Shown: positions 1-16,383 of the stretch, piece by piece
Position numbering within the stretch: position 1 is the first letter of the stretch
Layout of the letters: every line of letters begins with the position of its first letter
DNA from: Actinomycetes bacterium
GTDB lineage: Bacteria; Actinomycetota; Actinomycetes; Propionibacteriales; Propionibacteriaceae
Assembly (NCBI GenBank): GCA_009785885.1
Contig: WQUE01000068.1
Span: forward strand, 1-31,811
DNA: 31,811 nt
Reading direction: 5' to 3'
Program-made: the position numbers and the translations under genes
The notes under the pieces: model-generated
Seen by the model: the letters and a program-made list of their open reading frames with translations, nothing else
Databases searched by the model: none
What the model was told of the DNA's origin: nothing

Positions 1-196
1 CGGCCGCCATGATCTTCTCCCGCAGCGCCACGCCCCGGTGGTGGATGAGGTTCTGCGCCGACCGGTCCTGCACCGACCACCCCGCCCGCGTCAGTTGGGC
101 GTCGATCAGCACCCGCGCCCGCTCCTCGGGCGTCAAGCGCGCCGACACGTCGCTTTCCGGCATCACAGGGTTCAGCCTATCGAGGTCACCAGTCAT
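1..196 (-). CDS. hsdR: Type I restriction-modification restriction subunit (HsdR), N-terminal fragment running off the left edge
   Basis: Hand translation from ATG 196 (alternative ATG 163): MTGDLDRLNPVMPESDVSARLTPEERARVLIDAQLTRAGWSVQDRSAQNLIHHRGVALREKIMAA, with no stop. The pattern resembles, from memory, actinobacterial EcoAI/EcoEI-type HsdR N-termini. Not in the ORF track. Confidence 0.6.
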   Translation of the reverse strand, partial: MTGDLDRLNPVMPESDVSARLTPEERARVLIDAQLTRAGWSVQDRSAQNLIHHRGVALREKIMAA

Positions 197-233
197 GAGC
201 CGGATGGACCCCGGGACGCCCGCGGCGGGTAGC

Positions 234-1322
<1,089 letters not shown>

Positions 1323-1451
1323 CCTGGCCACCTCGTTGTCGGGATGCGAAACGTTGCCGCGGGTTTTCTGTCGTATTCGTTGGCGAGAACGCCTTGGCCG
1401 GGTTCCGTAGAGTACATGCGGAAAGCACACACGCGTGAAAGAAGGTTCCCG

Positions 1452-2348
1452 ATGGCAGCAGCGGATGTCCGGCCGCCCCGGGATCTGCGGCGCACGATGC
1501 TCGCAGACATGATGGCCTCCCAGGCGCTCGACGAGGAGGGCATGCTCCTGGCGAAGCAGGGGTCCCTCGACCTGTGGGCACCGTGCCGCGGGCAGGAGGC
1601 CGTGCAGGTCGGGGTGGCCCATGCCACGGCCGACTTCACGATCGTGCCTTCCTACCGCGAGACCGCACTCGCGCTGGTGCGTGGCGCCCGGCCCGAGCAG
1701 ATCGTCGCCCACTTGTCGGGCCGCACCTTCTGCGGCTGGGATCCCCGCGCCCTGCGCCTGTTCCCGTTCGCCCTGGTCCTTGCCAGCCAGCTGCTTCCCG
1801 CCGTCGGCTACAACCTCGGGACGCGCCTGCGCGGGCACGAGGAACCGGTGGCCGTGTTCTTCGGAGACGGGGCAAGCAGCGAAGGGGACGTCGCGGAGGC
1901 GTTCAACCTCGCGGCGGTGGAACGCGCCGGGGTGCTGTTCTGCTGTGTGAACAACGGCTGGGCCATCTCCAAGCCTTCCGACGACCAGATGCGGACGAGC
2001 GTGGCGGAGCGTGCCGCCGGTTTCGGCATCCCGTCCATCCGGGTCGACGGCCGCGACCCCGAGGACGTCTGGCTGACCTGCACCGCGGAGGCGGGGCACG
2101 TTCGGGCGGGGGAAGGGCCGCGCCTCATCGAGTTCATCACCGACCGGATCCTGAGCCACACGAGCAACGACGCCCAGGAGGCCTACCGCACGCCGGATGA
2201 CATCGCCACGTCCCTCGCCGGCGACCCCGTCGCCGCCTACCGGGACCGACTATCGGCCGAGGGCAGCATCGATCCGGCCTGGCTTGGCGACATCACGCAG
2301 CGGACGCGGGCCCTGCGGGCCGAACTGGCGAGGGAGTACACGCGATGA
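1452..2348 (+). CDS. ThDP-dependent 2-oxoacid dehydrogenase E1 alpha subunit (PdhA/BkdA family)
   Basis: GQEAVQVG, PSYRE, ThDP motif FFGDGASSEG...NNGWAIS, SHTSND..YR. ATG 1452 follows GAAAGAAGG. Confidence 0.9.
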   Translation: MAAADVRPPRDLRRTMLADMMASQALDEEGMLLAKQGSLDLWAPCRGQEAVQVGVAHATADFTIVPSYRETALALVRGARPEQIVAHLSGRTFCGWDPRALRLFPFALVLASQLLPAVGYNLGTRLRGHEEPVAVFFGDGASSEGDVAEAFNLAAVERAGVLFCCVNNGWAISKPSDDQMRTSVAERAAGFGIPSIRVDGRDPEDVWLTCTAEAGHVRAGEGPRLIEFITDRILSHTSNDAQEAYRTPDDIATSLAGDPVAAYRDRLSAEGSIDPAWLGDITQRTRALRAELAREYTR

Positions 2349-3325
2349 GCGGCATCATGGGCACCGGGCTCGCGGCCGGCATCAACGGCACGCTGGCGGA
2401 GCTGCTGGAGTCCGACGAGCGCGTCGTGCTGCTGGGCGAGGACATCGGACGCCTCGGGGGCGTCTTCCGCGTGACCCGCGGGCTGCAGGAACGATTCGGC
2501 CCGGAGCGGGTGCGCGACGCGATCCTGGCCGAGTCCGCGATCGTCGGGCAGGCGATCGGCATGGCACTGGCCGGCTTGGTGCCCATGTGCGAGATCCAGT
2601 TCGACGGTTTCAGCTTCCCGGCCGCGAACCAGCTGGTCACCCAGGCGGCGCGCATCGGGCAACGCTGGAACGGACGCGACGATCTGCATCTGGTCGTGCG
2701 CATCCCCTCGGGCGGCGGCACGCGGGCCGTCGAGCACCACGCCGACTCCAACGAGGGCGTCTTCGCCGCCGTGCCCGGGCTGCGCGTCGCGTACCCGTCC
2801 ACGGTCGAGGACCACCGGGACGTCCTCGCCGAGGCGCTGGCCCTTCCCGGTCCCGTGCTCGTCTACGAACCCATCCCGCTCTACTGGAAACGTTCCCGGG
2901 CGCTGCCCGACGCGGTGGCGCCGCGCAACCGGACGTCGGCGCGCGTGCTCCGTCCGGGACGCGACGCGACGCTGGTCACCTACGGGGCGATGACCCGGAC
3001 CGCCCTCGACGCGGCCGACGCGCTCGCCGAGTCGGTGGACGTCGAGGTCCTCGATCTGCGGTGGCTCTCGCCCCTGGACGAAGACGGCATCCTGGCGTCC
3101 GTGCGACGGACGGGGCGGCTGGTCGTCGCGCAGGAGTCGTCGCCGACGCACGGGGTGGGCGCCGAGGTCGCTGCGCTGGCGGCCGAGCGGGCGTTCGATG
3201 CCTTGCGCGCGCCCGTCCGGCGGCTCGGGGCGCCCCACCGGCCGCCACCCCCCGCCGACGTCGAGGCGTCGATCCGAATCCAACGCGACGACATCGTCCA
3301 GACGATCCAGGAGGTCATGGCATGA
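2345..3325 (+). CDS. 2-oxoacid dehydrogenase E1 beta subunit (PdhB/BkdB family)
   Basis: GEDIGRLGGVFRVTRGL, DAILAESAIVG, EIQFDGF, EHHADS, DLRWLSPLD. ATGA overlap with E1 alpha. Confidence 0.92.
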   Translation: MSGIMGTGLAAGINGTLAELLESDERVVLLGEDIGRLGGVFRVTRGLQERFGPERVRDAILAESAIVGQAIGMALAGLVPMCEIQFDGFSFPAANQLVTQAARIGQRWNGRDDLHLVVRIPSGGGTRAVEHHADSNEGVFAAVPGLRVAYPSTVEDHRDVLAEALALPGPVLVYEPIPLYWKRSRALPDAVAPRNRTSARVLRPGRDATLVTYGAMTRTALDAADALAESVDVEVLDLRWLSPLDEDGILASVRRTGRLVVAQESSPTHGVGAEVAALAAERAFDALRAPVRRLGAPHRPPPPADVEASIRIQRDDIVQTIQEVMA

Positions 3326-3573
3326 GCGAGACCATCGAGGTGCGCGTTCCGCCGTTCGGGCAGTCGATCGACGAGGCGCTCATCGTCACCTGGCTCGTCG
3401 CACCGGGCCAGGCGATCACGCGCGGCGAGCCGGTCGTCGAGGTCGAGACGGCCAAGGCCACCTACGAGGTGCCGGCCGAGCACGACGGCGTGGTGGAGTC
3501 CCTCCTGGCGGCCCAGGGTCAGATCGTCGACGTCGGCGCCCCCCTGTACCGCCTGACCGTGGAGCCGGCATGA
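3322..3573 (+). CDS. Free-standing lipoyl-carrier domain protein (83 aa)
   Basis: MSETIEVRVPPFGQSIDEALIVTWLVAPGQAITRGEPVVEVETAKATYEVPAEHDGVV, with the lipoyl-Lys motif ETAK. ATGA overlaps at both ends; no E2 catalytic domain. Confidence 0.88.
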   Translation: MSETIEVRVPPFGQSIDEALIVTWLVAPGQAITRGEPVVEVETAKATYEVPAEHDGVVESLLAAQGQIVDVGAPLYRLTVEPA

Positions 3574-4532
3574 GCGCCGGCCTGGTCGACGTGGAGGCGT
3601 GGCTGCCGCCGCACGACGTCCCCAACGACATCTTCACCGGCATCGGGCTGACCGACGAGTGGATCGTCCGCCGCAGCGGCATCGTGAGCCGCGCGTACTT
3701 CGCCGACGACGAGTCGCCCGTGCGGGCCGCGGGCGACGTCGTGCGCCGGCTCGTCACCCGGTGCCCCGACCCGGCCCGGATCGGGGCGCTGCTCGTCGTC
3801 AGCACGTCGAACGACGCCCGCGTCCCCGGTGCCGCCCAGATCATCGCGGAGGACGCCGGCCTCGGGCACACCCTGCTCACGCTCGACCTGAATGCGGCCT
3901 GCAACGGGTTCGTCTACGCACTGGCCGTCGGGCTCGCGCTCGTCGAGTCGGGCACGGTGGACGAGGCTGTCGTCTGCGCCATGGAGGCCATGTCGCGCCT
4001 CACGAACATGGCGGACCGCCAGTCGGCGTTCCTGTTCGGCGACGGTGTGGGCGCGGTTCGTCTTGCCGCCCGGCCCGGTTTCGTCGCCTCGCGCGCCGTC
4101 GCGGGCAGCGACGCCACATTCGCGTCGCTGATGACGATGGACGCGGACGGGCTGGTGCTTCGCGGCATCGAGGTGTACAAGCACGCGATCACCCGCATGA
4201 AGGAGTCCCTCGCTGCCGTCGTGGATCAGACCGACCCGGCACCCGTCGTGGTCGTGCCCCACCAGGCCAACGGACGCATCCTCGACGAGGTCCGCCGGGG
4301 GCTGCCCGGTCCAGGGCTGCGCCTGGTGAACCGCATCGAGCACATGGGGAACACCTCGTCGGCGTCGATCCCGTTGGCGTTCGCGGCCGAACTGGACGAC
4401 GGGGCGATTCCGCGGAGCGGCCGTCTGGCCACGGTGGGCTATGGGGCGGGCGAGGCGTGGGGCGCGGTGTCCTGCCACTACGCCATCGACCACGAGGCGC
4501 CGGTTGGGCCGTTCCCGCCATCCGCCGGGTAG
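3570..4532 (+). CDS. 3-oxoacyl-ACP synthase III (FabH/KAS III family)
   Basis: TDEWIVRRSGI, DLNAACNGF (Cys), FLFGDG, VPHQAN (His), MGNTSSASIP (Asn). ATG 3570 overlaps the lipoyl-domain stop. Confidence 0.9.
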   Translation: MSAGLVDVEAWLPPHDVPNDIFTGIGLTDEWIVRRSGIVSRAYFADDESPVRAAGDVVRRLVTRCPDPARIGALLVVSTSNDARVPGAAQIIAEDAGLGHTLLTLDLNAACNGFVYALAVGLALVESGTVDEAVVCAMEAMSRLTNMADRQSAFLFGDGVGAVRLAARPGFVASRAVAGSDATFASLMTMDADGLVLRGIEVYKHAITRMKESLAAVVDQTDPAPVVVVPHQANGRILDEVRRGLPGPGLRLVNRIEHMGNTSSASIPLAFAAELDDGAIPRSGRLATVGYGAGEAWGAVSCHYAIDHEAPVGPFPPSAG

Positions 4533-4600
4533 CCTGGAACGCCGCGGCATAAGCTTGTGGGCGGAGCGTTCGTGCCCGCATGACGTGAGGAGTCCCATCG

Positions 4601-5053
4601 GTGATCGACATCAACAACGAGTCCGGGATACCGGCCGACGAGCAGGATCTCGTGCGGCTGGCCGGCTTCGTGTTGCGGACCCTGCGCATCCACGCGCAGG
4701 CCGACCTGTCGATCCTGCTGGTCGACGAGGCGACGATGGCGTCGTACAACACCGAGTTCATGGACCACACCGGTCCGACCGACGTGTTGAGTTTCCCGAT
4801 GGATGAGCTGCGCCTGCCCGCCGCCGACGAGCCGCCGCCCCGGGGGATGCTGGGCGATGTCGTGCTGTGTCCGGCCGTGACCGCTCGCCAGGCCGCCGAG
4901 AACGGCCGCAATCCCCGTCAGGAAGCCGAATACCTGCTGATCCACGGCATCCTCCACCTGCTGGGCTACGACCACGCCGCCCCGGCCGAGAAGGCGGTCA
5001 TGTTCGCGATGAACGACCGCCTGGCGGCCGCATGGGCGGCCGCGCGGCATTGA
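4601..5053 (+). CDS. ybeY: rRNA maturation endoribonuclease YbeY
   Basis: GPTDVLSFPMD, GDVVLCP, HGILHLLGYDH. GTG start after GAGGAG. Confidence 0.95.
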   Translation: MIDINNESGIPADEQDLVRLAGFVLRTLRIHAQADLSILLVDEATMASYNTEFMDHTGPTDVLSFPMDELRLPAADEPPPRGMLGDVVLCPAVTARQAAENGRNPRQEAEYLLIHGILHLLGYDHAAPAEKAVMFAMNDRLAAAWAAARH

Positions 5054-5061
5054 GGACGGCG

Positions 5062-6372
5062 ATGACACAGACCGAATGGATCCATCTCGGCGTGGCCCTG
5101 GCGCTCGCCGTGATCGCCATGCTGCTCGTCGCCTCCGAGGCGGCGATGGCGGTCATGTCGCGACCGCGGGCCGCCGGGCTCGTCGCGGCGCACGTCCGGG
5201 GAGCCGACAAAGTGGCGGACATCGCCGCCGATCGTGCCCCCTTCATCAACACCTCCATGCTGGTCCGCCTGGTCTGTCAGGTGCTCGTGACGTTGCTCGT
5301 CGCCGGGGTCGTGTTCGACCACCTCGACGTGCTGTGGCAGCGCCTGTCGGTGACCGGGGCGGTGATGGTGCTTGTCTGGTTCATCGCCTGGGGCGTCGGC
5401 CCGGCCACGCTGGGGCGCCAGCACGCCGACACCGTCGCGCTGCGCTCGGCCGGGGTGCTCGGCGGGCTCACGACCGTGCTCGGTCCGGTGGCGCAGTTGC
5501 TTATTCTCATCGGCAACGCGGTCACACCCGGCAAGGGCTATGCGGAGGGCCCGTTCTCCTCGGAGGCCGAGTTGCGGGAGATGGTGGACATGGCCGAGGC
5601 GTCCTCCGTGATCGAGGAGGGCGAGGCCGACATGATCCACTCGGTCTTCGAACTCGGCGACACGCTGGCGCGCGAGGTCATGGTGCCCCGCACCGACGTC
5701 GTCTACATCCAGGCCGGCAAGACGCTCCGGCAAGGGCTGTCGCTGGCGTTGCGCAGCGGCTTCAGCCGCATCCCCGTCGTGGGGGAGAATCTCGACGACG
5801 TGCAGGGCCTCCTCTACCTGAAGGACGTCCAGGGCCGCATCTTCGCTGCGCCCGGGTCCGAGCAGCGCGAAACGGTCGGCATGCTCGCCCGACCGGCCGT
5901 GTTCGTCCCGGACTCGAAACCGGTGGACGAGCTTCTGCACGACATGCAGCGGCGCCGCAGCCACCTCGTCATGGTCGTCGACGAGTTCGGCGGCACGGCC
6001 GGGCTCGTCACGATCGAGGACATCCTGGAGGAGATCGTCGGCGAGATCACCGACGAGTACGACGCGGAACCGGTCGGCGCTGCGGCCCTGGACGACGGCG
6101 GCACCGAAGGCTACCGGGTCGGCGCCCGCATGCCTCTCGACGAGTTGGGCGACCTGTTCGACGAGGAACTGGACGAGGACGACGTCGAGACGGTCGCCGG
6201 GCTGATGGCCAAGCAGTTGGCGATGGTGCCGATCCCGGGATCGACCGTCGACTGGCAGGGTCTGCGCTTCACCGCGGAGGATTCGGCCGGGCGGCGGCAC
6301 CGGATCGAGACGATCACCGTACGCCGCCTTTCACCCGAGGATGAGGACACGGACGACGATGCCGCACAGTGA
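5062..6372 (+). CDS. HlyC/CorC (CNNM) family membrane protein with tandem CBS domains
   Basis: Hydrophobic N-terminus with ASEAA, AREVMVPRTD, SGFSRIPV, VVDEFGGTAGLVTIEDILEEIVGEITDEYD. Usual position between ybeY and era. Confidence 0.9.
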   Translation: MTQTEWIHLGVALALAVIAMLLVASEAAMAVMSRPRAAGLVAAHVRGADKVADIAADRAPFINTSMLVRLVCQVLVTLLVAGVVFDHLDVLWQRLSVTGAVMVLVWFIAWGVGPATLGRQHADTVALRSAGVLGGLTTVLGPVAQLLILIGNAVTPGKGYAEGPFSSEAELREMVDMAEASSVIEEGEADMIHSVFELGDTLAREVMVPRTDVVYIQAGKTLRQGLSLALRSGFSRIPVVGENLDDVQGLLYLKDVQGRIFAAPGSEQRETVGMLARPAVFVPDSKPVDELLHDMQRRRSHLVMVVDEFGGTAGLVTIEDILEEIVGEITDEYDAEPVGAAALDDGGTEGYRVGARMPLDELGDLFDEELDEDDVETVAGLMAKQLAMVPIPGSTVDWQGLRFTAEDSAGRRHRIETITVRRLSPEDEDTDDDAAQ

Positions 6373-7312
6373 CCACCGCCCCGCCGACGGCGGGACGTTC
6401 CGCTCCGGGTTCGTGTGCCTGGCGGGACGCCCCAACGCGGGCAAATCGACGCTCACGAACGCCCTCGTCGGCGGGAAGGTCGCGATCGCCTCGTCGAAGC
6501 CGCAGACGACGCGCCACGCGATCCGCGGCATCCTCACCCGGACGGACGCGCAGCTCGTCCTCATCGACACGCCGGGCCTGTCCAAGCCGCGCTCGCTGCT
6601 CCAGGAACGCCTCAACGACCTGGTGCGCGGGACGTGGGGCGAGGTGGACGTCATCGGCGTGTGCCTGCCCGCCGACCAGCGGGTCGGGCCGGGGGATGAG
6701 TACCTCGTCGGGCAAATCGCCGCGCTCGGCGCGCGCCGTCCCGCGCTGGTGGCGCTGGCGACGAAGTCCGACCTCGTGTCGGGGGAGCGCCTGCGACGCC
6801 ACCTGCTGCGCATCGAGGCGATGCAGGAGGCGCAGGGTGTGAGCTGGGCCCACATCGTGCCGTGCTCGGCCGTGACGGGCACCCAGGTCGACGAGGTCGC
6901 GGATGTGCTCATCGGCCTCCTGCCGCCCGGCCCCGCGTACTACCCGGATGGCGAACTGACCGACGAGCCGGAAGAGGTGCTGATCGCCGAGCTCATCCGC
7001 GAGGCGGCCCTGGAGCTCGTCCGCGACGAGCTGCCGCACAGCATCGCCGTGACCGTGGACGAGGTGCGCCCCCGCGAAGGGCGGCCCGCCGACCGGCCGC
7101 TGCTGGAGGTGTTCGCGTCGCTCGTCATCGAGCGCGAATCCCAGAAGCACATCATGGTCGGCGCCCAGGGGAGCCGCATCAAGCAGATCGGCACCGACGC
7201 CCGGTCCGCGATCACGGCGCTCCTCGGTGTTCCCGTGCACCTGGACCTGCGGGTCAAGGTGATCAAGGAGTGGCAGTCCGACCCCAAGGCGCTGCGGCGT
7301 CTCGGATTCTGA
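6359..7312 (+). CDS. era: GTPase Era
   Basis: GRPNAGKSTL, PQTTR, DTPG, TKSD, ELPHS and a C-terminal KH region. Start is ATG 6359 or 6341. Confidence 0.95.
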   Translation: MPHSDHRPADGGTFRSGFVCLAGRPNAGKSTLTNALVGGKVAIASSKPQTTRHAIRGILTRTDAQLVLIDTPGLSKPRSLLQERLNDLVRGTWGEVDVIGVCLPADQRVGPGDEYLVGQIAALGARRPALVALATKSDLVSGERLRRHLLRIEAMQEAQGVSWAHIVPCSAVTGTQVDEVADVLIGLLPPGPAYYPDGELTDEPEEVLIAELIREAALELVRDELPHSIAVTVDEVRPREGRPADRPLLEVFASLVIERESQKHIMVGAQGSRIKQIGTDARSAITALLGVPVHLDLRVKVIKEWQSDPKALRRLGF

Positions 7313-7596: not shown

Positions 7597-8250
7597 ATGA
7601 TCGATAATCCCCTGAAAAGTGCCGTTTTGAGCATGAAGATCATTCCGCGGGTCGACGAGGACCTGAAAGGGCACCTCGGCCTGCCCGCCGCGCACCAGGC
7701 GATCGGCCTGTTTACAGCAGATTGCGATGATGTCGCGTACACCGCCCTGGACGAGGCGACCAAGAAGGCGGACGTCACGGTGGTGTACGCGAAGTCGTTC
7801 TACGGCGGGGCCGCCCGCGCGAACACCAAGCTGGCCGGTGAAATCATCGGCGTGATTTCGGGGCCCAATCCGGCGGAAATCCGGGCGGGCCTGGACACGA
7901 TTTGCGACGTCATCGACAACCAGGCCTGGTTCTTCAGCGCCAACGAGGACGACACGATCTGCTACTACGCCTATTGCATCTCGCGCAGCGGCTCCTACCT
8001 TTCCGCGATCGCCGGTGTTCCCCAGGGAACGGCGATCGCGTATCTCATCGCGCCGCCGGAGGAAGCGGTCTATGGCCTGGATGCGGCCCTGAAGGCGGCC
8101 GATGTCACGCTCAGCGCGTTCTACGGGCCGCCCAGCGAGACCAACTTCGGGGGCGGCCTGCTGACCGGCGAGCAGAGCGCCTGCAAGGCGGCCTGTGCGG
8201 CGTTCGCGGATGCCGTCAAGGCTGTCGCGGCAAACCCGACCGAGTACTGA
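7597..8250 (+). CDS. eutL: Ethanolamine utilisation microcompartment shell protein EutL (BMC-T)
   Basis: TADCDDVAYTALDEATKKADV, YAKSFYGGA, SRSGSYLS, AYLIAPP, PPSETNFGGGLLTGEQSACKAAC. SD GGAGGT. Confidence 0.93.
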   Translation: MIDNPLKSAVLSMKIIPRVDEDLKGHLGLPAAHQAIGLFTADCDDVAYTALDEATKKADVTVVYAKSFYGGAARANTKLAGEIIGVISGPNPAEIRAGLDTICDVIDNQAWFFSANEDDTICYYAYCISRSGSYLSAIAGVPQGTAIAYLIAPPEEAVYGLDAALKAADVTLSAFYGPPSETNFGGGLLTGEQSACKAACAAFADAVKAVAANPTEY

Positions 8251-8257
8251 GGGCGCC

Positions 8258-8473
8258 ATGGATGCCATCGCAATGGTCGAGACGCGCGGCCATCCCGTCG
8301 CAGTCGGGGCGGCGGGCGCAAGGCCGGACGAGGCGGACCCGGCCGGGCTGTCGGTGTACGAACTGCGCACCCGGGTGCGGGGGATCCCGGGGCTGGGCCT
8401 GAGCGGCGCCGACGTCCGCGTGATGCGCCGGGCGGACCTGATCGCGCTGCTGCGGCAGGGCCAGGGCCGGTAG
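8258..8473 (+). CDS. 71-aa protein: BMC-hexamer-like N-terminus joined to the helical tail seen on some BMC proteins; possible internally deleted shell gene
   Basis: MDAIAMVETRG resembles EutM/PduA starts (MEALGMIETRG). The tail LSVYELRTRVRGIPGLGLSGADVRVMRRADLIALLR resembles, from memory, Firmicutes EutK-like C-terminal domains. The BMC core is absent. Confidence 0.55.
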   Translation: MDAIAMVETRGHPVAVGAAGARPDEADPAGLSVYELRTRVRGIPGLGLSGADVRVMRRADLIALLRQGQGR

Positions 8474-8489
8474 AGGAGAGGAGCACGAC

Positions 8490-9323
8490 ATGGTGGCGGG
8501 GGCGACCGAGGCGCTGGAGCGCACCGTGGCGTCGTTGAGGCAGACGACGCCAGGTGCCCCGGTGTGCTGCGGGGTGGATCTCGGCACCGCCTCGATCATC
8601 GTCGTCGTCCTCGGGGAGGGCGGCGTGCCGCTGGCCTGCGAGATGGAGCCCTGCCGGGTCGCCCGCGACGGGCTCATCGTCGACCATCTCGGGGCGATCC
8701 GCATCGTGCGGCGGCTCACGGACCGTCTGCGCGAGCGCCTCGGGGCCGATCTCGGCCCGGCGGCCATCGCCGTCCCCCCGGGCACCGTGCCCGCCAGCGC
8801 GTCCACCCACCGGCACGTCGCCGAGGCGGCCGGGCTGGAGGTGACGGCGGTGCTCGACGAACCCACGGCGGCCAACGCAGTGCTCGGCCTCGTCGACGGC
8901 GCCGTGGTCGACATCGGCGGCGGCACGACCGGACTGTCGGTGTTCAAGGGATCCCGGGTGATGTACGTCGCCGACGAGGCCACCGGCGGAGTGCACATGA
9001 ACCTCGTCCTCATGGGCCGTCTGGGCATGACGTTCGAGCAGGCCGAGGCGTACAAGGTCGATCCGGTGAACGCGGACGACGTGCGGCAGGCCGTGCGTCC
9101 CGTCGCCGAGAAGATGGCGAGCATCGCCGCCGATCATCTCGCGGGCTGCCCGGTGGACCAGGTGTGGCTGGTCGGAGGCACGGCCGGGTTGGCGGGGATC
9201 GAGGAGGTCTTCGCGGATGCCTTGGGCGCGCCGACGGCGAAACCACCGCATCCCATGATGGTGACCCCGCTCGGCATCGCCCGGTCGGTGTTGCGGTCCT
9301 GTGGCGAGGCGGTGGCCGCGTGA
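8490..9323 (+). CDS. eutJ: Ethanolamine utilisation protein EutJ (actin/Hsp70-like ATPase)
   Basis: GVDLGTASI, RDGLIVDHLGA, LDEPTAAN, VVDIGGGTTG, DEATGGVH, EQAEAYK, LVGGT, TPLGIA. Confidence 0.92.
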   Translation: MVAGATEALERTVASLRQTTPGAPVCCGVDLGTASIIVVVLGEGGVPLACEMEPCRVARDGLIVDHLGAIRIVRRLTDRLRERLGADLGPAAIAVPPGTVPASASTHRHVAEAAGLEVTAVLDEPTAANAVLGLVDGAVVDIGGGTTGLSVFKGSRVMYVADEATGGVHMNLVLMGRLGMTFEQAEAYKVDPVNADDVRQAVRPVAEKMASIAADHLAGCPVDQVWLVGGTAGLAGIEEVFADALGAPTAKPPHPMMVTPLGIARSVLRSCGEAVAA

Positions 9324-10750
9324 AGGACGTGCTCACCTCCGTCGGGATCGACATCGGGACGACGACGTCCCAGGTCGTGTTCTCCCACATCACGATCGAG
9401 GATCTCTCCAGCGGGTTCACCGTGCCGCGCGTCGAGATCGTCGACAAGGAGATCGTCTACCGGGGCGACATCTGTTTCACGCCGCTGACCTCGCCGACCA
9501 CGATCGACGCGGTCGCGTTGCGTGACCTGGTCACGCGCGCGTACGACCAGGCCGGCGTGGCGCCGGGCGAGGTCAAGACGGGCGCGGTCGTGATCACCGG
9601 GGAGACGGCCCGCAAGGAGAACGCCGCGGAGGTGCTGGCGCACCTGTCGGACCTGGCGGGGGATTTCGTCGTGGCGACGGCGGGGCCGACGCTGGAGAGC
9701 GTCATCGCGGGACGCGGGGCCGGCGCCGATGCGGCGTCGAAGCGGCTGGGCTCCACGGTGGCGAACTACGACATCGGCGGAGGCACCAGCAACTTCGCGC
9801 TGTTCGACCGTGGTGCCCCGGCCAGCGCCGGCTGCCTCGACATCGGAGGACGACTGGTCCGCATCGACCGGGCGCGCGGCGCCATCACCTACGTGGCTCC
9901 GAAGATCGCCCGCCTGTGCAACGACGCGGGCATCCGGTGCGCTGTCGGCGACGTGGCCGACCTCGCCCGCTTGCGTCGCGTGGCGCGTGCCATGTGCGAC
10001 CTGCTGGAGATGAGCCTGGGTCTGGCGCCGAAGTCGGCGTTCTATCCCACGATCCTCACCGAACCGGGGCACGACGTGATGCTCCCGAAGCCGATCGGGC
10101 ATCTCATGTTCTCCGGCGGGGTTGCCGACTGCGTGCGGGACGCCAGTCGTGAACCGTTCGCGTACGGCGACCTGGGTGTGCTGCTCGGCGCGGCGATCCG
10201 GGACTCGGCGGGGCTGTCACGGATCCCCCGGCTGGACGCCGCCGAGACGATCCGTGCGACCGTCGTCGGTGCGGGCACGCACATCACGGAACTGTCGGGG
10301 TCGACGATCGAGTACGACGCGTCCCTGCTGCCGATCAAGAACGTGCCGATTCTCAAGCTGTCCCGCGACGAGGAGGCGGACCCCGCGGCCATGGGCACCT
10401 CGATCCGCGACCGGCTGGGTTGGTTCGCCGCGGACGGCCCGGCTGCGCCCGTCGCCATCGCCTTCGCCGGACCGGCCAGCCCAACGTTCGCCCGGGTCCA
10501 GGAGTTGGCGCGCGTCATCGTCGAGGCGATGGCGCCACGCGTCGCCGAGGGGGCACCCGTGATCGTCGTCACCGAGTCGGACCTGGCGAAGGTCCTGGGG
10601 CAGTCGCTGCGCGCCCATCTGGGCGCCCGGCACGGATTCATCTGTATTGACGGCATCGCGGTGGAGGGGGGTGACTACGTCGATATCGGCGCACCCGCCG
10701 CGGCGGGGGTCGTCTTACCCGTCGTGGTGAAGACCCTCGCTTTCCGATGA
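9320..10750 (+). CDS. eutA: Ethanolamine ammonia-lyase reactivating factor EutA
   Basis: SVGIDIGTTTSQVVFS, GAVVITGETARKENA, GDFVVATAGP, NYDIGGGTSN, FSGGVAD, ETIRATVVGAG. GTG start overlaps the eutJ stop. Confidence 0.93.
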   Translation: MKDVLTSVGIDIGTTTSQVVFSHITIEDLSSGFTVPRVEIVDKEIVYRGDICFTPLTSPTTIDAVALRDLVTRAYDQAGVAPGEVKTGAVVITGETARKENAAEVLAHLSDLAGDFVVATAGPTLESVIAGRGAGADAASKRLGSTVANYDIGGGTSNFALFDRGAPASAGCLDIGGRLVRIDRARGAITYVAPKIARLCNDAGIRCAVGDVADLARLRRVARAMCDLLEMSLGLAPKSAFYPTILTEPGHDVMLPKPIGHLMFSGGVADCVRDASREPFAYGDLGVLLGAAIRDSAGLSRIPRLDAAETIRATVVGAGTHITELSGSTIEYDASLLPIKNVPILKLSRDEEADPAAMGTSIRDRLGWFAADGPAAPVAIAFAGPASPTFARVQELARVIVEAMAPRVAEGAPVIVVTESDLAKVLGQSLRAHLGARHGFICIDGIAVEGGDYVDIGAPAAAGVVLPVVVKTLAFR

Positions 10751-10781
10751 AGCGTTCGATCAAGCAAAGGAGTGAAGGACA

Positions 10782-12167
10782 GTGAAGCTCAAGACAACGC
10801 TGCTGGGCAAGACGTACGCCTTCCGCGACATCAAGGATGTCCTGGCGAAGGCCAACGAAGTCAAGTCCGGCGACCAACTCGCCGGCATCGCCGCGGAAAC
10901 CGCGCAGGAGCGCGTCGCGGCCAAGGTTGTGCTGGCCGATCTGCTCGTCGGCGACGTGCGCAACGCCCCGGTCGTGCCGTACGAGGACGACGAGGTCACC
11001 CGGATCATCCAGGACGACGTGAACGAGCGCATCTACGACTCCATCAAGAACATGACGATGGCCGAGCTGCGTGAATACATCCTCGACGATGCGACGACGA
11101 CCAACGATGTGCGGCGGCTGTCGCGCGGCTTGACGAGCGAGGTCGTCGCCGGGGTCGCCAAACTGATGAGCAACCTCGACCTGATGCTCGGCGCGAAGAA
11201 ATGCGTCGTGCAGGCCCACTGCAACACGACGATCGGCGGCGAAGGCGTGTTCGGGACGCGGTTGCAGCCCAACCATCCCACCGACGATCCGGACGGCGTG
11301 CTGGCCGAGGTGATGGAGGGTCTGGCCTATGGGGTGGGCGACGCGGTGATCGGGCTGAACCCGGTCGAGGATTCGGTGGCGAACACGACGCGCATCCTCG
11401 ACCTGTTCGCCGATTTCCAGGACACCTGGAACGTGCCCACGCAATGCTGTGTCCTCGCGCACGTCACCACGCAGATGGCGGCGATCGAGGCCGGTGCGCG
11501 CTCGGATCTGATCTTCCAGTCGATCGCCGGGTCGCAACTCGGCAACGAGGCGTTCGCGGTCACCGGCCGCGTGCTGCAGGACGCGCGGGACCTCATGGCC
11601 TCTCGCGGGGGATCCACCGGCCCGAACGTCATGTACTTCGAGACGGGCCAGGGTTCGGAGCTCAGCTCCAACGCCCACCACGGCGCCGACCAGGTGACGA
11701 TGGAGGCGCGCTGCTACGGCTTCGCGAAACGGTTCCAGCCGTTCCTGGTGAACACCGTGGTCGGATTCATCGGCCCCGAATACCTGTACGACTCGACGCA
11801 GGTCACGCGCGCGGGCCTGGAGGACCACTTCATGGGCAAGCTCACCGGCGTCCCCATGGGCTGCGACGCGTGCTACACGAATCACACGAAAGCCGACCAG
11901 AACGATATCGAGAATCTGGCGGTCCTGCTCGTCGCGTCCGGCTGCAACTACGTGATGGGTGTGCCCCACGGCGACGACATCATGCTCATGTACCAGTGCA
12001 CGGGGTATCACGAGGCCGAGAGCCTGCGGGCGCTGTTCGGCAAGACGGCGATCCCCGAATTCGAGAAATGGATGGTCGACATGGAGCTGATCACGCCGGA
12101 GCGCAAGCTGACGGACCGGTTCGGCGACGCCTCCATCTTCCTGACCGAGCGGCAAGGAGCACGCTGA
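10782..12167 (+). CDS. eutB: Ethanolamine ammonia-lyase large subunit
   Basis: LAKANEVKSGDQLAG, RLQPNHPTDD, MYFETGQGSELS, NTVVGFIGPEYLYD, LEDHFMGKL, GCDACYTNH. Confidence 0.97.
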   Translation: MKLKTTLLGKTYAFRDIKDVLAKANEVKSGDQLAGIAAETAQERVAAKVVLADLLVGDVRNAPVVPYEDDEVTRIIQDDVNERIYDSIKNMTMAELREYILDDATTTNDVRRLSRGLTSEVVAGVAKLMSNLDLMLGAKKCVVQAHCNTTIGGEGVFGTRLQPNHPTDDPDGVLAEVMEGLAYGVGDAVIGLNPVEDSVANTTRILDLFADFQDTWNVPTQCCVLAHVTTQMAAIEAGARSDLIFQSIAGSQLGNEAFAVTGRVLQDARDLMASRGGSTGPNVMYFETGQGSELSSNAHHGADQVTMEARCYGFAKRFQPFLVNTVVGFIGPEYLYDSTQVTRAGLEDHFMGKLTGVPMGCDACYTNHTKADQNDIENLAVLLVASGCNYVMGVPHGDDIMLMYQCTGYHEAESLRALFGKTAIPEFEKWMVDMELITPERKLTDRFGDASIFLTERQGAR

Positions 12168-13021
12168 TGAACGAAGACGATATCGCACGGCTCGTCCGGG
12201 AAGTCCTGGCGGACATCACCGCCCGAAACGCCGTCCCGGCGGATGCCGCATCGCCGGGGGAAGGCGATGAGGCGCCCGACGTCACGGCAGTCACCACGAG
12301 GGACGAATTCCACGTGCCCCATCCGGCGAACCGGGAGGGCTATCTGGCGATGAAGCAGTCCACCGTTGCGCGGCTGGGCGTGTGGCGGGCCGGACCGCGC
12401 TACAACACGTATTCGATGCTGCATTTCCGGGCCGACCACGCGACGGCCCAGGACGCGGTGTTCACCGATGTCGATCCCGGCTGGGTCACCGGGCAAGGGT
12501 TCATCGCCGGCCAGTCCTTGTGCCACAGCAAGGACGAATTCCTCACCCGGCCCGATCTGGGACGCAAGTTGAACGACGAGACGCGCGACCTGTTCCGCCG
12601 GGAACTCACCCGCTCGACGGTGACCATCATGGTCGGGGACGGCCTGTCCAGTTCGGCGATGGTGAACGTGCCCGAAATCCTGCCGGCCGTGAAGCAGGGC
12701 CTGCAGGGGTTCGGGATCGAGGCCGGCCCGGTGGCCTACGTCAAGTATTGCCGGGTCGGCGCCATGGATGACGTCGGGCAGCTGATCGGGTCGGATGTCG
12801 TCCTGCTGCTGATCGGTGAGCGCCCCGGGCTGGCGACGGGCGAGTCGATGAGCGCCTACATGGCCTACCAGCCGCGCCCGGACCGCCCGGAGAGCTGGCG
12901 CACCGTCGTGTCGAACATCTACCGCGGCGGCACGCCGCCGGCCGAGGCCGGCGCGCACATCGCCACCCTGCTCAAACGGATGCTCGACGAGAAGATTTCC
13001 GGCGTCGACCTCAAGCTGTAG
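12167..13021 (+). CDS. eutC: Ethanolamine ammonia-lyase small subunit with N-terminal encapsulation-peptide-like helix
   Basis: ARLGVWRAGPRY, FRADHATAQDAV, FLTRPDLGRKL, GDGLSS, LIGERPGL, ESMSAYMAY, VSNI. TGATG coupling to eutB. Confidence 0.95.
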   Translation: MNEDDIARLVREVLADITARNAVPADAASPGEGDEAPDVTAVTTRDEFHVPHPANREGYLAMKQSTVARLGVWRAGPRYNTYSMLHFRADHATAQDAVFTDVDPGWVTGQGFIAGQSLCHSKDEFLTRPDLGRKLNDETRDLFRRELTRSTVTIMVGDGLSSSAMVNVPEILPAVKQGLQGFGIEAGPVAYVKYCRVGAMDDVGQLIGSDVVLLLIGERPGLATGESMSAYMAYQPRPDRPESWRTVVSNIYRGGTPPAEAGAHIATLLKRMLDEKISGVDLKL

Positions 13022-13047
13022 GCGCGCCCCGACCCAAGGAGTTGACC

Positions 13048-14493
13048 ATGGACATGCTGGATCCGGATCTTGCCTCGGTGCAGGAGGCGCGCACGTTGAT
13101 CCGTGCCGCCACCGCCGCCCAGGCGACGCTGGCCACGTTCTCGCAGGCACAGGTGGATGCGATCTGCGCCGCGATGGCGCGAGCCGGGACCGAACACGCC
13201 GAGGAACTCGCGCGGATGGCCGTCGACGAGACGGGCATGGGGCGCGTCCCCGACAAGACGATCAAGAACCGGTTCGGGTCGGCGACCGTGTGGGAGGCGA
13301 TCGCCGACGTCCCCACCGTGGGCGTCCTCGCCGAGCATCCGGACCGCGGCGTGACCGAGGTCGGCGTGCCCATGGGCGTGATCGCGGGCATCATCCCGAC
13401 GACCAACCCCACATCCACCGCGATGTTCAAGGCGATCATCGCGGTCAAGGCGGGCAACGCGATCGTCATGTCGCCACATCCCGGCGCGAAGGCGTGCACC
13501 CTGGCGGCGACCGCGATCGTTGCCCGTGCCGGCGAGGCCGCCGGGGCACCGCCCGGCCTCGTGGCGTGCCTCGCCCACCCGACGATGGCGGCGACGCACG
13601 AGGTGATGACCCATCCGGACGTCGCGTTGATCCTCGCCACGGGCGGGGGTGCGATGGTGAAGGCGGCCTACTCGTCCGGCAAACCGGCGCTCGGTGTCGG
13701 GCCGGGGAACGGCCCCGCGTTCATTGAGCGGTCCGCGGACATCCCGGCCGCCGTGCGGCGCATCATCGACTCCAAGACGTTCGACAACGGGACGATCTGC
13801 GCCTCGGAACAGTCCGTCGTGACCGAGGACGCGATCCGCGGCGACGTGATCGCCGAATTCGAACGCCAGGGCGGGTTCTTCCTCGACGGCCCCGCCAAGG
13901 ACGCCGTCGGCGCGATCCTCATGCGGGCAACCGGCACGATGAACCCGGCGATCGTCGGACAGACCGCGCCGCGCATCGCCGAGATGGCGGGCGTCGCGGT
14001 ACCTTCGGGCACGCGGGTGCTGCTCGGCGTGGAGACGAACGTGGGCCCGGCCTTCCCGTACTCGCGGGAGAAGCTGTGCCCGGTGCTCGGCTTCTACTCC
14101 CGGCCGGACTGGCGCAGCGCGTGCGACCTGTGTCTCGACATCCTGCGGCACGAGGGGGCCGGGCACACCATGTCGATCCACTCCCGCGACGAGGACGTCA
14201 TCCGCGAGTTCGGGCTGCGCAAGCCGGTGTCACGGCTGCTCGTCAACACGCCGGCCGCGCTCGGCGGCGTCGGGGTGACCACCGGCCTGCAGCCGTCCCT
14301 CACGCTCGGCTGCGGCGCCGTCGGCGGGAACGCGTCGGCCGACAACATCGGGCCGCTGAACCTGCTCAACATCCGGCGGGTCGCCCGTGGGTTGCGCGAA
14401 CTGGACGACGTCCGGACCGGCACCGAACCGCGCCGCGAGGGCGGCGACGTGGAGCGGGTCGTGCGACTCGTCCTCGCGCAACTGGGCCGGTGA
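13048..14493 (+). CDS. eutE: CoA-acylating acetaldehyde dehydrogenase EutE
   Basis: AVDETGMG, IPTTNPTST, ATGGGAMVKAAYSSGKPALGVGPGN, KTFDNGTICASEQ, EKLCPVL, TLGCG. Start at ATG 13048 after AAGGAG. Confidence 0.9.
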   Translation: MDMLDPDLASVQEARTLIRAATAAQATLATFSQAQVDAICAAMARAGTEHAEELARMAVDETGMGRVPDKTIKNRFGSATVWEAIADVPTVGVLAEHPDRGVTEVGVPMGVIAGIIPTTNPTSTAMFKAIIAVKAGNAIVMSPHPGAKACTLAATAIVARAGEAAGAPPGLVACLAHPTMAATHEVMTHPDVALILATGGGAMVKAAYSSGKPALGVGPGNGPAFIERSADIPAAVRRIIDSKTFDNGTICASEQSVVTEDAIRGDVIAEFERQGGFFLDGPAKDAVGAILMRATGTMNPAIVGQTAPRIAEMAGVAVPSGTRVLLGVETNVGPAFPYSREKLCPVLGFYSRPDWRSACDLCLDILRHEGAGHTMSIHSRDEDVIREFGLRKPVSRLLVNTPAALGGVGVTTGLQPSLTLGCGAVGGNASADNIGPLNLLNIRRVARGLRELDDVRTGTEPRREGGDVERVVRLVLAQLGR

Positions 14494-14600
14494 CTCCCGC
14501 CCGCACTGCGAGGTCACCCGCATCCCGCCCACGCTCGCGACAACCGACTGGCGGACCGGCGCCGGCCACACACCACGTCCCATCCACCGGAAGGACCGTC

Positions 14601-14852
14601 ATGGACAACGAACAGCTGGTCGCCACGGTGACCAAGATCGTCATCGAGCGCTTGGCGCACCCCGCATCGGGCGTGCCCCATCACCGTATCGGCACTCCCG
14701 GTGTCGTCGATCTGTCGGGCCGGAAGGTCGTGGGGGAGCGCGACGTCCGCGACCTGGGGTCCGGCGTCGTCGTCAAGGTCGGCCCGCGGGCGATCGTCAC
14801 GGCCCTGGCGGCGGATCTCGTCCGCAGTCGGGGCGGCACGATCGCCCGCTGA
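14601..14852 (+). CDS. 83-aa eut-associated protein: encapsulation-peptide-like N-terminus plus a module resembling the EutQ N-terminal region
   Basis: MDNEQLVATVTKIVIERL ... RKVVGERDVRDL...AIVTALAADLVRSRG. SD-like GAAGGA; GC3-rich codons. Confidence 0.65.
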   Translation: MDNEQLVATVTKIVIERLAHPASGVPHHRIGTPGVVDLSGRKVVGERDVRDLGSGVVVKVGPRAIVTALAADLVRSRGGTIAR

Positions 14853-14874
14853 AACCGGCGGTCGGGCACATGAC

Positions 14875-15057
14875 ATGAGAGGTGGCACAGGCGCATGGAT
14901 ACTCGCCGTCGTCTTCTTCGCGAGCGGCGCGACGATGCTGAAGCGGGCCTCCGCCCCTGGCGCGGTCCGCCGGGTCGGTTTCGGCTACTTCATGCTGCTC
15001 CTCGGCGTCCTGGTCTGCCTCTACTGGATCGTCGACGGATGGGGAGCCGGCGGCTGA
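14875..15057 (+). CDS. Hypothetical 60-aa membrane protein with two hydrophobic segments
   Basis: WILAVVFFASGATML and VGFGYFMLLLGVLVCLYWIV; GC3-rich codons; no clear SD. Confidence 0.45.
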   Translation: MRGGTGAWILAVVFFASGATMLKRASAPGAVRRVGFGYFMLLLGVLVCLYWIVDGWGAGG

Positions 15058-15135
15058 GAGGGGGCTGAATCGCCCCGGGTCAGCCGGGCGGTGGGCAGTG
15101 GCGCCCACGACGGACACGACACTCAAGGAGGAGAA

Positions 15136-16383
15136 ATGGCTTCGGTCAGTCAGATCATCATCTACATCATGCTGGCGTTCATGGTCGTCGGCGTTATCGA
15201 CAAGGTGTTCTTCAATAACCGGTGGGGGTACGGCGAGAAATTCGAGGAGGGCATGTCGGCGATGGGCGTCCTGGCGCTGGCGATGGTCGGCATCATGTGC
15301 CTGGCCCCGGTGCTGGGCGCATGGCTGCAGCGACCGGTGGGGGCGGTGTTCGGACTTGTCGGCGCCGATCCCGCCATGTTCGCCGGGTCGCTCCTGGCGA
15401 ACGACATGGGCGGTTTCCCGCTCGCCGGGGCGATGACGTCCGATCAGGGCGTGCATGTGCTGTCGGGCCTGTTCATGGGCTGCATGATGGGCGCCACGAT
15501 CGTGTTTTCGATCCCGGTGTCCCTCGGCATCATCGACAGGGAGGACCGCCCGTTCCTCGCCCGGGGCATGCTGGCCGGTTTCATCTCGATCCCGTTCGGG
15601 GTGTTCCTGGCGGGTGTGCTGTACATGATCAGCTACAACGGCACGGTCGACGGGGCAGCCCATCCGCTGTCGTTCGGCAAGATTCTGGTGAATCTGGTGC
15701 CGTCCGCCGTGCTGGCGATCCTGCTCGCGGTCGGGCTCGCGCTGATCCCGAATGGCATGATGAAGGGCTTCAACGTGTTCGCGGTGTTCATCTCCGGGGC
15801 GATCACGTTGATGCTGGCGCTCGCGATCGTCAACAAGCTGGGCCTGCTGCTAGGGCCGGCCGGGGCGGACGGGAAATCGCTCGTCAGCTGGATCCCGTTC
15901 GTCGGCGTGGACGGGGCGGGCGGAGCGCGTCAGATGGCCCCGATCGGTCCCCAGTTGGAGACGTGCGGGATCATCGCGATCACGCTCGCCGGAGCGTTCC
16001 CGTTCGTGCACTTCGTCAGCACCGTGCTCTCCAAGCCTGTCGGTGCCCTCGGCCGGCTCCTGGGCGTGAACCAGGCAGCCGCGACCGGCATGATCGCTGC
16101 CTTGGCGAACAACATTCCCATGTTCGGCACGCTGAAGACTTTTGACAACCGGGGCAAAGTGCTGGCCGTGGCGTTCTCGGTGTGTGCATCGTTCGCGCTC
16201 GGCGACCATCTCGGCTATGCCGCCGGGGTGGCCCCGGATGCGATTTTCGCCATGGTCGTCGGGAAGATCGCCGGCGGCATCATCGGCATCGTCGTGGCGA
16301 TGCTGCTCGCGGTGCGGGGCCTCGAGGTCGTCCGTGGCGCGGCCGGGGGCGTCGTCGCCGCCGCCGATGCCGGAGCGGCCTGA
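15136..16383 (+). CDS. eutH: Ethanolamine permease EutH
   Basis: QIIIYIMLAF, FEEGMSAMG..ALAMVG, MFAGSLLANDMGGF, MGATIVFSIPV, ANNIPMF, ALGDHLG. SD AAGGAGGAG. Confidence 0.93.
   Translation: MASVSQIIIYIMLAFMVVGVIDKVFFNNRWGYGEKFEEGMSAMGVLALAMVGIMCLAPVLGAWLQRPVGAVFGLVGADPAMFAGSLLANDMGGFPLAGAMTSDQGVHVLSGLFMGCMMGATIVFSIPVSLGIIDREDRPFLARGMLAGFISIPFGVFLAGVLYMISYNGTVDGAAHPLSFGKILVNLVPSAVLAILLAVGLALIPNGMMKGFNVFAVFISGAITLMLALAIVNKLGLLLGPAGADGKSLVSWIPFVGVDGAGGARQMAPIGPQLETCGIIAITLAGAFPFVHFVSTVLSKPVGALGRLLGVNQAAATGMIAALANNIPMFGTLKTFDNRGKVLAVAFSVCASFALGDHLGYAAGVAPDAIFAMVVGKIAGGIIGIVVAMLLAVRGLEVVRGAAGGVVAAADAGAA

Follow-up and report, generated by a model that had tools for sequence, protein, structure and literature searches.

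The stretch analysed here, referred to below as the window, is a 31,811-nt contig (WQUE01000068.1, positions 1 to 31,811 of the forward strand) of the assembly GCA_009785885.1, a metagenome-assembled genome (MAG) of a termite-gut actinomycete of the Propionibacteriaceae (2.13 Mb in 354 contigs, 79.6% completeness, about 70% GC). It carries a cassette of four genes that encode the α and β subunits of a thiamin diphosphate (ThDP)-dependent 2-oxoacid dehydrogenase E1 component, a stand-alone lipoyl carrier and a FabH-like 3-oxoacyl-acyl carrier protein (ACP) synthase III (KAS III). Our reading, which we hold with roughly even confidence, is that this cassette is a horizontally acquired copy of a five-gene module from which the ACP gene has been deleted, and that its KAS III would unload the lipoyl carrier without an E2 acyltransferase and condense the acyl group with malonyl-ACP. 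The module found in other genomes probably feeds starter units derived from keto acids into chain building without the usual E2. A transfer of the acyl group from the lipoyl arm directly to the catalytic Cys of KAS III had been proposed in an original prediction made on the window alone, and comparative genomics now supports this idea well beyond a single locus.

The four open reading frames (ORFs) of the cassette are joined by three ATGA start/stop overlaps, located at exactly 2345, 3322 and 3570. These couplings had been predicted together with intact ThDP, lipoyl-Lys and Cys-His-Asn motifs, and the ORFs, the Pfam domains and the positions of the motifs all confirm that description. The ThDP motif GDG..NN corresponds to residues 138-168 of E1α (nt 1863-1955). 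The likely start of this subunit is at 1452, where the alignment with its Micromonospora homologue begins and upstream of which a purine-rich stretch resembles a ribosome-binding site. E1β aligns end to end with the pyruvate dehydrogenase (PDH) E1β structures 1ik6 and 3duf. From their Pfam domains, the ThDP motif and this full-length structural alignment, the two proteins are E1 subunits of the heterotetrameric type. Their best matches in the PDB are a Thermus 2-oxoacid dehydrogenase, Geobacillus PDH and Pyrobaculum E1β; the PDB and NCBIfam matches fail to separate a pyruvate-type from a branched-chain-type substrate. The lipoyl-Lys45 of the carrier lies within ETAKA (codon at nt 3454-3456) and is invariant among 10 aligned module homologues, in all of which the lipoyl protein stands alone. 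The best NCBIfam matches of the carrier are the lipoyl ends of E2 proteins. It is not itself an E2, which would combine lipoyl, subunit-binding and PF00198 core domains, since its 83 residues hold a Biotin_lipoyl domain only. As predicted, a Pfam search found neither an E2 catalytic domain nor an E3 within the cassette. In KAS III, the residues Cys111, His231 and Asn261 (codons at 3900-3902, 4260-4262 and 4350-4352) align with C112, H244 and N274 of E. coli FabH, and Arg249, the ACP-docking residue of the E. coli enzyme, is also aligned. All four cassette proteins are divergent and score under the NCBIfam equivalog cut-offs.

In a large protein collection, the KAS III of the window falls into a clade of at least about 120 protein clusters sharing 42-63% identity with it. 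The nearest member is that of Micromonospora lutea (63%), followed by metagenomic proteins at about 60% and by some 110 further clusters at 42-54% from Streptomyces, Embleya, Kitasatospora, Actinoplanes, Nocardia, Millisia, Luteococcus and MAGs. Besides the window, 12 gene contexts were examined, from Micromonospora, Streptomyces, Luteococcus, Nocardia, Millisia, MAGs and metagenomes. Eleven of them encode E1α, E1β, a lipoyl-only protein (81-95 aa), an ACP (80-92 aa) and KAS III, and the genes follow one another in this order in 10 of these 11 complete contexts. Luteococcus differs, with the order ACP-KAS III-medium-chain dehydrogenase/reductase (MDR)-phosphopantetheinyl transferase (PPTase)-E1α-E1β-lipoyl. 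The twelfth context is a 4-kb contig with a polyketide synthase (PKS) gene of ketoreductase (KR), ACP and thioesterase (TE) domains, followed by ACP, KAS III and MDR genes, and it ends too early for the E1 and lipoyl genes. An adjacent ACP is present in 12 contexts out of 12 and an E2 core in none of them. Comparison of the neighbourhoods thus bears out the expectation that the four gene types travel together, but the relatives add an ACP gene between the lipoyl and KAS III genes. Since the E1, lipoyl and KAS III genes stay linked under both gene orders, KAS III appears as the sole conserved thioester-handling enzyme at the place of the E2 core. Moreover, the constant presence of the lipoyl protein and the constant lack of an E2 core would leave KAS III as the only conserved enzyme able to unload the acyl-dihydrolipoyl arm. 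The predicted position of KAS III in place of the E2 core is thereby supported. Nor is the lipoyl protein a truncated E2: it is of the same small size in all 11 contexts where its gene is visible, with no E2 core nearby.

Most contexts directly adjoin genes for non-ribosomal peptide synthetases (NRPS) or type I PKS. The module is frequently followed by an MDR remotely similar to the enoylreductase (ER) domains of PKS and to crotonyl-CoA reductases (CoA: coenzyme A). Other followers are a FabL/FabG-like short-chain dehydrogenase/reductase (SDR) and, in Nocardia, a MaoC dehydratase. The proximity of these ER-, KR- and dehydratase (DH)-type genes implies a condensation product carried by the ACP, and fits the priming of chain synthesis that had been predicted. 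The same contexts bear on a second possible role, in which KAS III would be an E2 surrogate transacylase only, handing the acyl group on from the lipoyl arm to a phosphopantetheine carrier with no condensation step and thereby providing an acyl-ACP starter to a PKS or NRPS (here those of contigs C21 and C229 of the host genome). Several KAS III-like enzymes are acyltransferases, but known relatives of the transferase type usually alter the catalytic triad, whereas the full decarboxylation/condensation triad Cys-His-Asn is invariant in 120 members of the clade. In one relative, the PKS that follows the module begins with a ketosynthase (KS) domain and has no loading module, as a transacylase would lead one to expect; the ER-, KR- and DH-type partners suggest instead a β-keto product. 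The host genome does contain one NRPS contig and one PKS contig, yet the two are unlinked contigs and the GC content of the former is atypical. On this evidence we consider a role restricted to transacylation very unlikely.

On some MAG and metagenome contigs (loci L027/L028 and L076), an SDR gene comes after the five-gene module. At locus L027, genes for an acetolactate-synthase-like ThDP-dependent enzyme and for a tautomerase also follow, and no NRPS or PKS gene lies within 9 kb. The module is thus not confined to assembly-line clusters.

The reaction that we propose for the cassette can be outlined as follows. By homology, E1α and E1β would decarboxylate a 2-oxoacid on ThDP and reductively acylate Lys45 of the carrier. 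Cys111 of KAS III would then take the acyl group from the S-acyl-dihydrolipoyl arm, a direct transfer that we infer from the conserved association of the genes and the constant lack of an E2 core. A condensation with malonyl-ACP, catalysed by the same enzyme, would then yield a 3-oxoacyl-ACP, as expected by homology from the Cys-His-Asn triad and Arg249. Reoxidation of the carrier may be ensured by the housekeeping Lpd. An Lpd scoring above cut-off is encoded on contig C222 and could act in trans, the cassette having no E3. Two genes of the LipB/LplA family are also found in the genome. With this Lpd, these genes and lipoylated E2s, the host could supply both lipoylation and reoxidation. With the ACP gene of the module deleted here, another carrier would have to serve as acceptor. 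The simplest candidate in the window organism is the housekeeping AcpP, and the alternative is a carrier of the NRPS or PKS encoded on other contigs. A prediction of the complex between the KAS III dimer and the lipoyl carrier gave a score of 0.00, which is neither support nor counter-evidence.

Contig C229 (21 kb, four ORFs) consists wholly of NRPS modules and has a GC content of 74.4%, about 2 standard deviations above the genome mean (70.5 ± 1.7%). Contig C21 carries a PKS with an NMO-type ER, KS, acyltransferase, ACP and KR domains, plus a second KS. Both could be clients of the cassette or binning noise.

The closest functional parallels are QncN/QncL/QncM of the quinocarcin pathway and SclQ1-4 of the scleric acid pathway, where a dedicated ACP serving an NRPS receives a C2 unit from an E1-like pair and a lipoyl-E2 fusion (PMC6335953). 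Like these systems and their naphthyridinomycin counterparts, the module combines E1α-like and E1β-like subunits, a lipoyl group and, in the relatives of the window copy, a dedicated ACP, in clusters of the NRPS type. In each case a ThDP-derived acyl group would be routed via the lipoyl group to a carrier protein and not into central metabolism, and no E3 is encoded. However, QncL and SclQ4 unite the lipoyl domain with an E2 acyltransferase domain in one protein (PMC6335953), whereas the lipoyl protein of the module stands alone and its partner is KAS III. The E2 catalytic domain of this logic thus seems to be replaced by KAS III in the module. The window copy differs further from the Qnc and Scl systems by having neither the ACP nor an NRPS context.

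Other relatives share single components. PDH and the branched-chain 2-oxoacid dehydrogenase, which have a heterotetrameric E1, resemble the cassette in that its E1α and E1β are ordinary by sequence and its lipoyl domain is of the E2 type; unlike them, the cassette has no subunit-binding domain, E2 core or E3, and its proteins fall short of the corresponding equivalog models. FabH and the KAS III enzymes of secondary metabolism (ZhuH, RevR) share with the cassette KAS III the thiolase fold, the Cys-His-Asn triad and Arg249, and the cassette enzyme is 29-38% identical to actinobacterial FabH. In contrast to these enzymes, module KAS III proteins form a separate long-branch clade, are always linked to E1 and lipoyl genes and not to an acyl-CoA source, and never occur in a fab operon. 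Finally, in the alphaproteobacterial PDH E1β with an N-terminal lipoyl domain (NCBIfam NF008854) a lipoyl domain is likewise tied to E1, and the window carrier matches positions 2-78 of that model. In those proteins, however, the lipoyl domain is fused to E1β, and transfer still proceeds by a normal E2 and E3. A study on dynaplanin and the armeniaspirol pathway (ArmJKL/RevRST) were considered as precedents and proved unrelated.

No description of a module combining E1, lipoyl protein, ACP and KAS III was found in the full-text literature searched, the coverage of which excludes subscription journals. If a lipoyl arm does prime KAS III, the module would represent a new hand-over between the lipoyl and phosphopantetheine swinging-arm systems, and a CoA-independent start of fatty-acid or polyketide chains from keto acids. 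It would also explain the supply of starter units in apparently uncharacterised actinobacterial clusters near NRPS or PKS genes, and offer a compact part for engineering. The window copy would add an evolutionary twist, being a module stripped of its ACP and set in a housekeeping operon of a genome that lacks fabH. The module should interest enzymologists and natural-product researchers alike, with the reservation that its central step is deduced from sequences.

The origin of the window copy is best accounted for by horizontal transfer. All four proteins find their best match in the M. lutea module (E1α 65.5%, E1β 71.7%, lipoyl protein 59% and KAS III 62.7% identity), which suggests that they moved as a unit. 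Within the genus, the family and the order, the best matches of the KAS III are housekeeping FabHs at 28-38% identity, and a similarity search of genome contigs for related loci returned distant FabHs only. The module is rare, being present in one further genome among 400 sampled across the class. In the KAS III tree, the module clade is split from housekeeping FabH with a Shimodaira-Hasegawa approximate likelihood ratio test (SH-aLRT) value of 100 and a branch length of 3.1, and the window protein branches as the sister of the Micromonospora proteins (SH-aLRT 95). The cassette KAS III is not an orthologue of housekeeping FabH, since it lies in a separate clade, scores below the NCBIfam FabH cut-offs and is encoded between phoH and ybeY. 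By sequence comparison, the window proteins are thus assigned to the module's own clades, and the cassette as a whole is taken to have been gained by horizontal transfer as one translationally coupled unit. Its GC content at third codon positions (GC3) is host-like.

The point of entry can be located precisely. In the closest relatives of the same genus (G001 and G004, YbeY 72-73% identical), the phoH stop codon overlaps the ybeY start codon. In the window, 3.28 kb separate the two genes, and the GTG start of ybeY is preceded by its own GGAG. The cassette is therefore an insertion inside the phoH-ybeY-corC-era operon. A signal scan found no promoter-like or terminator-like sites around the cassette, which is predicted as likely to be read through with the operon. 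The assembly across the cassette is sound. DNA of the window is present in two termite-gut metagenome runs: a single Logan contig from the source run covers 1140-4979, and the second sample, from another study, contains identical pieces of the E1α and KAS III genes as well as a piece (4392-4881) crossing the KAS III/ybeY junction. Low-depth contigs in both runs join about 1276-1283 to 4602, with matching sides of just 22 nt. Such joints are expected if cassette-free relatives coexist in the community, and are taken as a hint only.

The window has four of the five module genes. No ORF is found between the lipoyl and KAS III genes, and the window is the only copy without ACP among the 13 contexts. 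The junction between these two genes seems to bear a trace of the missing one. The last 9 nt of the lipoyl gene, GTGGAGCCG, contain GGAG and lead into the KAS III start. The M. lutea module has GTGGAGCCG at the 3′ end of its ACP gene, directly ahead of the start of KAS III, and its lipoyl gene has a different end. The shared junction string, together with the tree, argues for an in-frame deletion of the ACP gene in the window lineage. The junction points to a deletion that took the lipoyl tail and nearly the whole ACP gene and spared the ribosome-binding site of KAS III. The cassette, which the original prediction regarded as a minimal four-gene form, would instead be a derived, ACP-deleted copy of the five-gene module.

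Several observations, concerning the CoA-binding residues, the incompleteness of the copy and the fab genes of the host, weigh against our reading. Across the clade there is little or no variation at W32, R36 and R151, the residues by which E. coli FabH contacts the CoA nucleotide, so that KAS III may still follow an acyl-CoA route. A housekeeping E2 core acting in trans would then convert the acyl-lipoyl carrier into acyl-CoA, and the cassette would amount to precursor supply plus a FabH. The genome does encode PF00198 E2 cores on other contigs (C223 and C92). E2 cores, however, normally act on their own tethered lipoyl domains, and the lipoyl domains of the host E2s would make a private lipoyl-only protein superfluous. 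No module context encodes an E2 core either, despite its own E1, lipoyl protein, ACP and sometimes PPTase. We therefore judge the acyl-CoA route unlikely, though deserving of attention, and prefer direct unloading of the lipoyl carrier by KAS III.

The window copy has neither ACP nor MDR and is so far unique in this, so that it could be inactive. It would then be a remnant of a biosynthetic cluster, non-functional or in decay, left in the phoH-ybeY operon after the loss of ACP, MDR and assembly-line partner. No homologue of the module ACP, MDR or PPTase was found in the genome, and the TE, MFS and PKS of the M. lutea cluster have no homologues there beyond generic similarity. The 31.8-kb window contains no NRPS or PKS genes, and the rarity of the module in the class also speaks for a stray fragment. 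The state of the genes themselves speaks otherwise. None of the four reading frames is interrupted, every catalytic motif is preserved, and conserved sites have not accumulated extra changes: KAS III differs at 6 of 82 highly conserved sites, as many as its sister sequences do. The three ATGA couplings and the ribosome-binding site before KAS III have been kept, GC3 matches that of the host and the same sequence occurs in a second sample. A decaying fragment is therefore a rather doubtful explanation, and a functional ACP-deleted module is preferred.

The fab genes of the host suggest a use for such a module. On contig C101 (15345-18003), fabD is followed by a 48-nt gap, acpP and fabF, without fabH, whereas five relatives have the order fabD-fabH-acpP-fabF. 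According to a protein search and a Pfam ACP_syn_III_C search, the assembly has no KAS III besides that of the cassette. Given the loss of the private ACP, the site in a housekeeping operon and the absence of fabH, the cassette could prime type II fatty-acid synthesis through AcpP. It might thus be a domesticated starter module that initiates housekeeping fatty-acid synthesis from 2-oxoacids, the acyl group passing from the lipoyl arm via KAS III onto malonyl-AcpP with neither acyl-CoA nor E2, in co-transcription with phoH-ybeY-era. We put this forward tentatively and hold it to be improbable as it stands. The assembly is only 79.6% complete. Two relatives that are 95-98% complete (G010 and G013) have no fabH, no KAS III and no cassette, so that the missing fabH needs no replacement; FabH-independent initiation seems to occur in this family. 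Nor did the window KAS III shift significantly towards the surface residues of housekeeping FabH (8 sites, compared with 5-9 in other members). Only two positions stand out, P243 and K214, the latter being D or E in the clade and K or R in FabH; the change at K214 is anecdotal.

Table 1. Coordinates of the cassette and of the neighbouring genes in the window.
Feature	Position	Strand	Remarks
phoH	9-1322	+	Pfam PhoH, 319 bits; upstream flank of the insertion
Inserted segment with cassette	1323-4600	+	3.28 kb, missing between phoH and ybeY in G001 and G004
E1α (ThDP-binding subunit), 299 aa	1452-2348 (ORF open from 1344)	+	PF00676, 171 bits
E1β, 326 aa	2345-3325	+	Pfam Transket_pyr (PF02779) and Transketolase_C (PF02780)
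Stand-alone lipoyl carrier, 83 aa	3322-3573	+	Biotin_lipoyl PF00364, 72 bits
KAS III (FabH-like), 320 aa	3570-4532	+	Pfam ACP_syn_III and ACP_syn_III_C
ybeY, GTG start	4601-5053	+	Pfam YbeY; downstream flank
CNNM/CBS/CorC gene	5053-6372	+	CNNM, CBS and CorC_HlyC domains
era	6341-7312	+	Era-type GTPase and KH domain
Tandem-BMC-domain shell protein	7597-8250		Ethanolamine-utilisation locus (7597-16383), directly 3′ of era
EutJ-like protein	8490-9323		Ethanolamine-utilisation locus
EutA	9320-10750		Ethanolamine-utilisation locus
EutB	10776-12167		Ethanolamine-utilisation locus
EutC	from 12164		Ethanolamine-utilisation locus
Aldehyde dehydrogenase	13051-14493		Ethanolamine-utilisation locus
EutH	15133-16383		Ethanolamine-utilisation locus

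Downstream of era, the + strand continues with an ethanolamine-utilisation locus, after which come clpS, gltX and the S10 ribosomal operon. The S10 protein belongs to a cluster at 90% identity of which Cutibacterium is also a member, in keeping with a tentative placement of the organism as Propionibacteriaceae-like. A single shell gene is visible in the ethanolamine-utilisation locus, and no pentamer or small hexamer gene was seen in the window. The ribosomal protein L4 (20456-21643) is extended at its C-terminus by about 185 residues that match no Pfam family. In this extension, a region rich in Lys, Ala and Glu, within which a unit of about 25 aa is duplicated, precedes a compact tail of about 55 aa.

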